This document shows, one piece after another, positions 9,857-10,133 of a stretch of DNA of 64,000 bases. The translations under genes and the position numbers were made by a program. The DNA is from Escherichia coli (lineage in GTDB: Bacteria > Pseudomonadota > Gammaproteobacteria > Enterobacterales > Enterobacteriaceae): assembly GCF_024700885.2 (NCBI RefSeq), contig NZ_CP117016.1, one strand, 5' to 3'. The notes under the pieces are model-generated. The model did not search any database, was not told the origin of the DNA, and saw nothing but the letters and a program-made list of their open reading frames with translations. Position 1 is the first letter of the stretch, and each line of letters begins with the position of its first letter.

Positions 9857-9953
9857 CCCCGGTCGGGGCTTCTCATCCCCCTGTGTGTGCAATATACGAA
9901 AAAAAAGCCCGTACCTTCGTACGAGCTCTTCTTTAAAGATGGCGGTGAGGGGG
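9857..9953. repeat. Direct repeat copy 1 (~97 bp) ending in a tRNA-Ser 3'-end match (putative att core)
   Basis: Identical to 10037..10133; positions 9940..9958 (tggcggtgagggggggatt) are the exact reverse complement of the last 19 nt of E. coli tRNA-Ser serW/serX (..AATCCCCCCCTCACCGCCA). Confidence 0.7.
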
Positions 9954-10036
9954 GGATTGACTCGCTTCGCTCGCCCTGCGGGCAGCCCGCTCACTGCGTT
10001 CACGGTCTGTCCAACTGGCTGTCGCCAGTTGTCGAA

Positions 10037-10133
10037 CCCCGGTCGGGGCTTCTCATCCCCCTGTGTGTGCAATATACGAAAAAAAAGCCCGTACCTTCGT
10101 ACGAGCTCTTCTTTAAAGATGGCGGTGAGGGGG
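10037..10133. repeat. Direct repeat copy 2 (~97 bp) with a shorter tRNA-Ser 3'-end match
   Basis: Same 97-bp unit as copy 1; terminal tggcggtgaggggg matches 14 nt of the tRNA-Ser 3' end; about 160 bp upstream of the integrase gene. Confidence 0.7.

Follow-up and report, generated by a model that had tools for sequence, protein, structure and literature searches.

The two direct repeats upstream of the integrase gene in the 64,000-nt stretch of Escherichia coli DNA analysed here (the window) almost certainly reflect two known features brought side by side: the native tRNA-linked repeat (TLR) array of the tRNA gene serX, and an island of the SRL-PAI/OI-43/OI-48 type that inserted cleanly into serX. 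Both parts have already been described, the first as the TLR/RtT repeat and the second as the serX-targeting island with a 14-bp direct repeat (DR). The sequence at 9856-10119 is, on the minus strand, 1.54 units of the 180-bp serX TLR of the RtT family, native downstream of serX, and the att site is restricted to the 14 nt at 10120-10133. The original prediction had placed an island boundary at the repeats; a tRNA-Ser-targeting integrase island does start here, but the 98-bp repeats are not att duplications.

Direct repeats at the junction and the native serX array

The gene order in the window is putP, efeUOB, phoH, a DUF2726 gene, the repeats, the integrase gene, and the genes of the island. 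A repeat search of the window returned a pair of direct repeats at 9856-9953 and 10036-10133, each of 98 nt (~97 bp in the original prediction), 100% identical, and spaced 180 nt from start to start. When read on the minus strand, either copy passes from a tRNA-Ser(GGA) 3' end into a strong terminator hairpin, AAAGAAGAGCUCGUAC-GAAG-GUACGGGCUUUUUUUU, followed by ~50 nt more. The tRNA-Ser reference used was serX of K-12, to which serW and the serX of the source genome are identical. The 3'-terminal 19-mer of serX/serW, AATCCCCCCCTCACCGCCA, has a single exact match in the 64-kb window, at 9940-9958 on the minus strand, where identity ends at nt 20; exact matches to the 14-mer CCCCCTCACCGCCA are limited in the window to 9940-9953 and 10120-10133, both on the minus strand. 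The tRNA ends of 19 and 14 nt that had been proposed for the two copies are thus real, and they do lie on the strand opposite to the integrase ORF. A chance match, which had been named as a possible objection, can be dismissed for the 19-mer, whose expectation is ~5e-7 in 128 kb of two-strand sequence; the 98-nt repeat and the 19-nt match are both far above chance. ARAGORN made no tRNA gene call in the window, in agreement with the predicted lack of a complete tRNA-Ser gene.

The features of the region are collected in Table 1. Repeat copy 1 consists of the truncated TLR unit together with 9940-9953. The DUF2726 gene belongs to the chromosomal flank, with phoH on one side and the array of serX repeats on the other, and lies outside the island. 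Three ORFs that run across the repeats (9761-10072 on the minus strand, 9885-10142 and 9887-10147 on the plus strand) were taken as spurious and are annotated in no genome; other Rfam matches on the repeat (MicC, and the Thr and Leu leaders) are terminator look-alikes only, far under threshold. In the upstream flank, the phoH ORF at 7537-8601 (plus strand) encodes 354 aa, as in the K-12 annotation, and PGAP gives 262 aa from a later start in strain MLI114, a discrepancy of annotation alone. The Yersinia antisense sRNA family Ysr251 of Rfam matched with 192.8 bits at 8403-8596 on the minus strand, where it is antisense to the phoH 3' end.

Table 1. Features around the integrase-proximal island junction, with positions in the window
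Feature	Position	Strand	Evidence or content
DUF2726-domain gene	9163-9849	+	ORF; PGAP WP_001605227.1 in the source genome and in island-free strain elppa4
Truncated terminal TLR unit	9856-9939	-	First 84 nt of the 180-nt unit: terminator and start of the body
Rho-independent terminator hairpin of the truncated unit, a copy of the serX terminator	9899-9934	-	Same sequence as 10079-10114
Complete 180-nt serX TLR (RtT-like) unit	9940-10119	-	Last 19 nt (9940-9958) are the tRNA-Ser(GGA) 3' end
serX terminator hairpin itself, directly after the att core	10079-10114	-	MFE structure; terminator-like match in a scan of the complementary strand; matches K-12 sequence 3' of serX
14-bp att core, "cryptic ser'X", integrase-proximal island junction	10120-10133	-	CCCCCTCACCGCCA; plus strand TGGCGGTGAGGGGG
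Island left arm, from the core to int	10134-10293	+	Two ATGGCATAC copies, 10252-10260 and 10264-10272
P4-family tyrosine integrase of serX/serW-targeting islands	10294-11496	+	ORF; NCBIfam integrase domain
Island portion in the window, first 53.9 kb of 80,334 bp	10134-64000		Annotation; 14-bp cores

The head-to-tail tRNA-linked architecture was first described for tyrT, and the RtT or TLR of the tyrT operon reportedly goes back to Egan and Landy in 1978 and to Rudd in 1999. At the tyrT locus of K-12 we found the same architecture as in the window, with the 19-nt end of tyrT's own tRNA, and the body of the serX TLR aligns to the tyrT units in conserved blocks. The Rfam model RtT (RF00391) matched 9940-10077 on the minus strand over its full length with 42.3 bits (E 2.4e-6), just below the gathering score of 45. 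In related genomes, PGAP places an "RtT sRNA" at the corresponding position, and the units so annotated show just four differing alignment columns relative to that of the window. Folding of the serX unit gives the terminator and a cloverleaf-like structure closed by GGGGGAU/AUCCCCC (z = -4.2). In K-12, in which serX carries no island, the gene is followed by three complete 181-nt units and a partial one, that is, 3.4 units; these differ from the window unit at four alignment columns, and each ends in the same 19 nt. TLRs have been defined by 18-19 bp at the unit 3' end that are identical to the end of the upstream tRNA or rRNA gene, 22 units being known from 10 K-12 loci with one to five per locus, and a function is known for the rrn-linked members only (PMC8144298). 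Judged by the K-12 sequence, which has the published defining features, the serX array would be a TLR.

Of 5426 complete E. coli genomes, 3365 contain the serX TLR body, each of them at 1-11 places (median 2). Among six strains, the number of full units at serX was 0 in O157:H7 and ATCC 25922, 1 in the window and in YZ22PE67, 2 in O111:H- 110512, and 3 at the empty site of K-12. In the island-free allele and in K-12 the array abuts serX in the same orientation, whereas in the window it begins at the tRNA's own 14-bp end and is split from serX and its promoter by the 80 kb island. Each unit consists of the serX terminator, a structured body of ~120 nt and a 19-nt copy of the tRNA 3' end, and the array is a variable-number tandem repeat that is found with the island and without it. 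The variation among strains suggests that the array is maintained, and changes its size, through unequal crossing-over or gene conversion among its units. The two 98-nt copies of the window have in common variants that set them apart from the units of most other strains, namely TCTTTAAAG (TCTTT…), the GAAGG loop and CAGGGGG, and in O111 110512 only the terminal partial unit has TCTTTAAAG and the GAAGG loop. The sharing of these variants between the copies, together with the O111 pattern, points to homogenisation within the array by gene conversion or unequal crossover.

The island boundary and its empty site

The window matched E. coli MLI114 (NZ_CP117013.1) with 0 mismatches over the full 64 kb. 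The intact serX, whose search in the source genome had been recommended, was located next to ghrA (record position 3189842-3189929) and passes directly into island DNA, reading …CCCCCCCTCACCGCCA up to the junction and GATTATAAGC beyond it. From core to core the island measures 80,334 bp, and serX lies ~26.5 kb past the window end, which is why the window holds no tRNA. Both ends of the island carry the 14-bp core, one copy lying at 10120-10133 and the other forming the end of the intact serX, and its sequence is identical to the published 14-bp DR of OI-43, OI-48 and SRL-PAI, which upholds the predicted tRNA-Ser-targeting, integrase-borne island. In OI-43/OI-48 this perfect DR, TGGCGGTGAGGGGG, is formed by the last 14 bp of serX/serW, excision by recombination between the DRs has been demonstrated experimentally, the P4-family int is next to a "cryptic ser'X" on the ycdU/clpA side, and int of EDL933 shares 99% nt identity with that of SRL-PAI (PMC3064760). 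Excision has also been shown for SRL-PAI (PMC7545054; PMC3064760), and with these near-identical integrases it depends on Int.

The integrase-side junction was found in 1264 and the tRNA-side junction in 1355 of the 5426 complete E. coli genomes. The integrase itself is identical at 399 of 400 aa to the one at the ycdU-side junction of O157:H7 ATCC 35150, where the layout is ycdU, a partial TLR, the 14 bp, and int. A layout with the integrase next to the cryptic tRNA end is canonical for the SRL-PAI/OI-43/OI-48 family, and the orientation that the original prediction called unexpected recurs in EDL933, Sakai and other O157:H7, which also have int beside the cryptic ser'X and the intact serX by ycdW/ghrA. 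The GC content is 44.2% in the island and 48.8% upstream of it. Within the window, ATGGCATAC occurs only as the pair at 10252 and 10264, and the pair is found again 57-69 nt inside the other island end with the same 12-nt spacing and the same orientation; these paired motifs are probably arm-type Int-binding sites.

The excised site was constructed in silico as a sequence of 901 nt comprising the 3' end of the DUF2726 gene, 1.54 TLR units, the rest of serX and the serX upstream region. At least 10 island-free complete genomes contain this sequence from end to end with 100.0% identity, and 495 contain it with at least 80% coverage. One island-free strain, elppa4, has the order efeB-phoH-DUF2726-serX-ghrA-ycdX, and its PhoH, DUF2726 and GhrA proteins have the same accessions as those of MLI114. 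Since natural empty sites are 100% identical to the reconstruction, both 98-nt copies are older than the island, the insertion was clean, and the short phoH-serX interval is a common haplotype and not a rearrangement. In K-12 that interval contains pgaABCD-dgcT-IS3-ymdE-ycdU, and in the window haplotype the DUF2726 gene only. The transition from core genome to island, thought to occur immediately after phoH instead of at serX, is therefore at serX, the haplotype with only the DUF2726 gene being present in 495 genomes as the empty site alone. A rearranged or secondary insertion, which had been suggested on these grounds, is ruled out by the empty sites, which in-silico removal of the island reproduces at 100% over 901 nt, and by the collinearity of the full window with MLI114.

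The same comparison bears on the other ways in which the repeats could be read. That both copies are att-type duplications from one or two integrations (tandem, secondary or rearranged), so that the pair would form an unusual boundary, is suggested by the tRNA-Ser 3' sequence that ends each copy and by their position directly upstream of the integrase. We nevertheless consider it hardly credible, as it is already refuted by the identical array beside an intact serX in genomes without the island. K-12 has even more copies, 3.4 units, and no island; the 84 nt downstream of the tRNA are repeated as well, which integration at a 14-bp core would not duplicate; and O157:H7 has the same orientation. 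An assembly artefact or a chance repeat is practically inconceivable, the general risk with tandem repeats being all that speaks for it, whereas the 98-nt identity is perfect and many complete genomes that were assembled independently have the same structure, so that this view, too, is already refuted.

The most coherent account of the locus is thus the native serX TLR array joined by a clean island insertion. An 80.3-kb island of the SRL-PAI/OI-43/OI-48 (SpLE1) integration family would have entered the last 14 bp of the genuine serX by Int-catalysed site-specific recombination of attP with these 14 bp, which we infer from the near-complete identity of the integrase to one whose excision activity has been published. 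The insertion would have split the locus, leaving the intact serX, rebuilt with the core carried by the island, by ghrA at the far end, and the original 14-bp serX end with its terminator and the TLR array beside int. Copy 2 would end in only 14 tRNA nt because the real tRNA end was cut at the crossover, and copy 1 in 19 nt because this is the hallmark of a TLR.

TLR cores as insertion targets and the origin of TLRs

Because the full 14-bp core is contained in each TLR unit, any unit might act as a second attB. The complete genomes were compared with a chimeric query made from the last 130 nt of a TLR unit and the right end of the island. The island right end was joined to a TLR body in 0 of 5426 genomes, with no place covering at least 80% of the query, while the tRNA-island junction was found in 1355 of 5426. 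TLR cores were rejected on this basis as secondary att sites, although traces of such insertions could have been removed afterwards by homologous recombination between units. Apparently, either the integrase needs tRNA sequence 5' of the 19-mer or insertions into TLRs get lost.

A different origin of the array would make the TLR units scars or miniature derivatives of ancient tRNA-targeting integrative elements, each 19-nt copy being an old att core. The units of serX and tyrT do share a homologous structured body and yet carry the 19-nt end of their own tRNA, and the duplicated segment, from the 3' half of the T-loop to CCA, coincides with the sublocation used by P4-family integrases, reportedly described by Williams in 2002. 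The units are, however, not associated with an integrase or any other remnant of an element; the local terminator inside the unit is consistent with a simple tandem duplication whose start lies 19 nt within the tRNA; and the present-day Int ignores TLR cores, with 0 of 5426 genomes against 1355. We therefore regard such an origin as quite improbable. The wider proposition that TLRs are scars of ancient integrative elements and, as a separate matter, that the SRL/OI-48 integrase discriminates against decoy TLR cores and needs sequence 5' of the 19-mer, appears unlikely.

The unused TLR cores in 5,426 complete genomes do constrain what the integrase recognises as attB, which is a minor constraint and not a discovery. 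The native TLR array and the island junction have practical value for annotation, where not all tRNA-end matches beside an integrase are att sites. At serX, tyrT and other TLR loci, native 19-nt copies of a tRNA end can be mistaken for island boundaries or for multiple integrations. At the locus described here the true boundary is the 14-bp core, and the repeats themselves are ordinary.

Island cargo and comparison with known systems

The cargo includes a large AAA protein, an enterotoxin gene, malX PTS genes, iro remnants, Afa-type chaperone-usher genes and many IS fragments, and past the window a type I R-M system, DarTG, Ag43 and CbtA/YeeU. Near the integrase (19040-24010 on the plus strand and neighbouring genes) are a 1656-aa protein with an AAA domain and a frameshifted primase fragment of a "TOTE conflict system", along with YfjI/DUF3987 genes and an inovirus Gp2-type gene; further along the island are the enterotoxin gene, the malX PTS genes, a pseudogenised iroCDEN and an Afa-type chaperone-usher/AfaD cluster.

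The only tRNA-like Rfam match in the window is a degenerate sequence at 39683-39750 (plus strand; 30.7 bits, gathering score 29) that received no ARAGORN call. Inspected by eye, it looks like ileX/ileY, having the context of a CAU anticodon and ending in CCACCA, and it was discarded as a candidate for the missing tRNA-Ser, being an unrelated, ileX/ileY-like pseudogene. Its sequence may be a trace of where a module formerly located at an ile-tRNA site had its boundary; if so, this would suggest a mosaic island. Just downstream, Rfam matches to the sRNAs STnc100 (136 bits, 40169-40383, plus strand) and STnc490 (52.3 against a gathering score of 56, 40390-40476, plus strand) were found. Two matches to the group II intron domain (RF00029), at 59235-59314 on the minus strand (53.8 bits) and at 60751-60830 on the plus strand (50.9 bits), form an inverted pair where the annotation shows fragments of IS481 and IS3 and an ORF with a "group II intron maturase-specific domain".

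With the TLR/RtT of tyrT, the serX array shares head-to-tail units of ~180 nt located 3' of a tRNA gene, the last 19 nt of that tRNA at the unit end, a homologous structured body (Rfam E 2.4e-6) and a variable copy number. It differs from the tyrT TLR in its linkage to serX, with a 19-nt end derived from tRNA-Ser, and in the strong terminator hairpin with which each unit opens. The window unit scores slightly under the RtT gathering cut-off of Rfam (42.3 vs 45), and, unlike the usual TLR, the window array is detached from its tRNA and promoter by the 80 kb island.

Among the islands, PAI-CFT073-serX and PAI-UTI89-serX of ExPEC have salmochelin (iro) and Ag43 genes in their listed cargo (PMC7545054). 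Compared by listed cargo, the present island resembles them in its insertion at serX, its iro remnants and its Ag43, and differs from them in that iro is pseudogenised and no S-pilus genes were seen. ATCC 25922 has the same integrase-side junction as the window.

A further close likeness is to OI-48/OI-43 (SpLE1) of EHEC O157:H7, a tellurite-resistance and adherence island, and to SRL-PAI of Shigella flexneri. The present island has in common with them the integrase (399/400 aa relative to O157:H7), the 14-bp DR, the serX 3' end as target, int beside the cryptic ser'X and the intact serX at the opposite end by ghrA/ycdW. The flank differs, with the DUF2726 gene here and ycdU in O157:H7. In the annotation of the whole island, no ter, ure, iha or SRL resistance genes were found anywhere, so that other cargo takes the place of what characterises OI-48 (ter/ure/iha) and SRL-PAI (the SRL resistance locus and fec). 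A shared integration module combined with different cargo indicates that this is another member of the family and not the same island as OI-48 or SRL-PAI.
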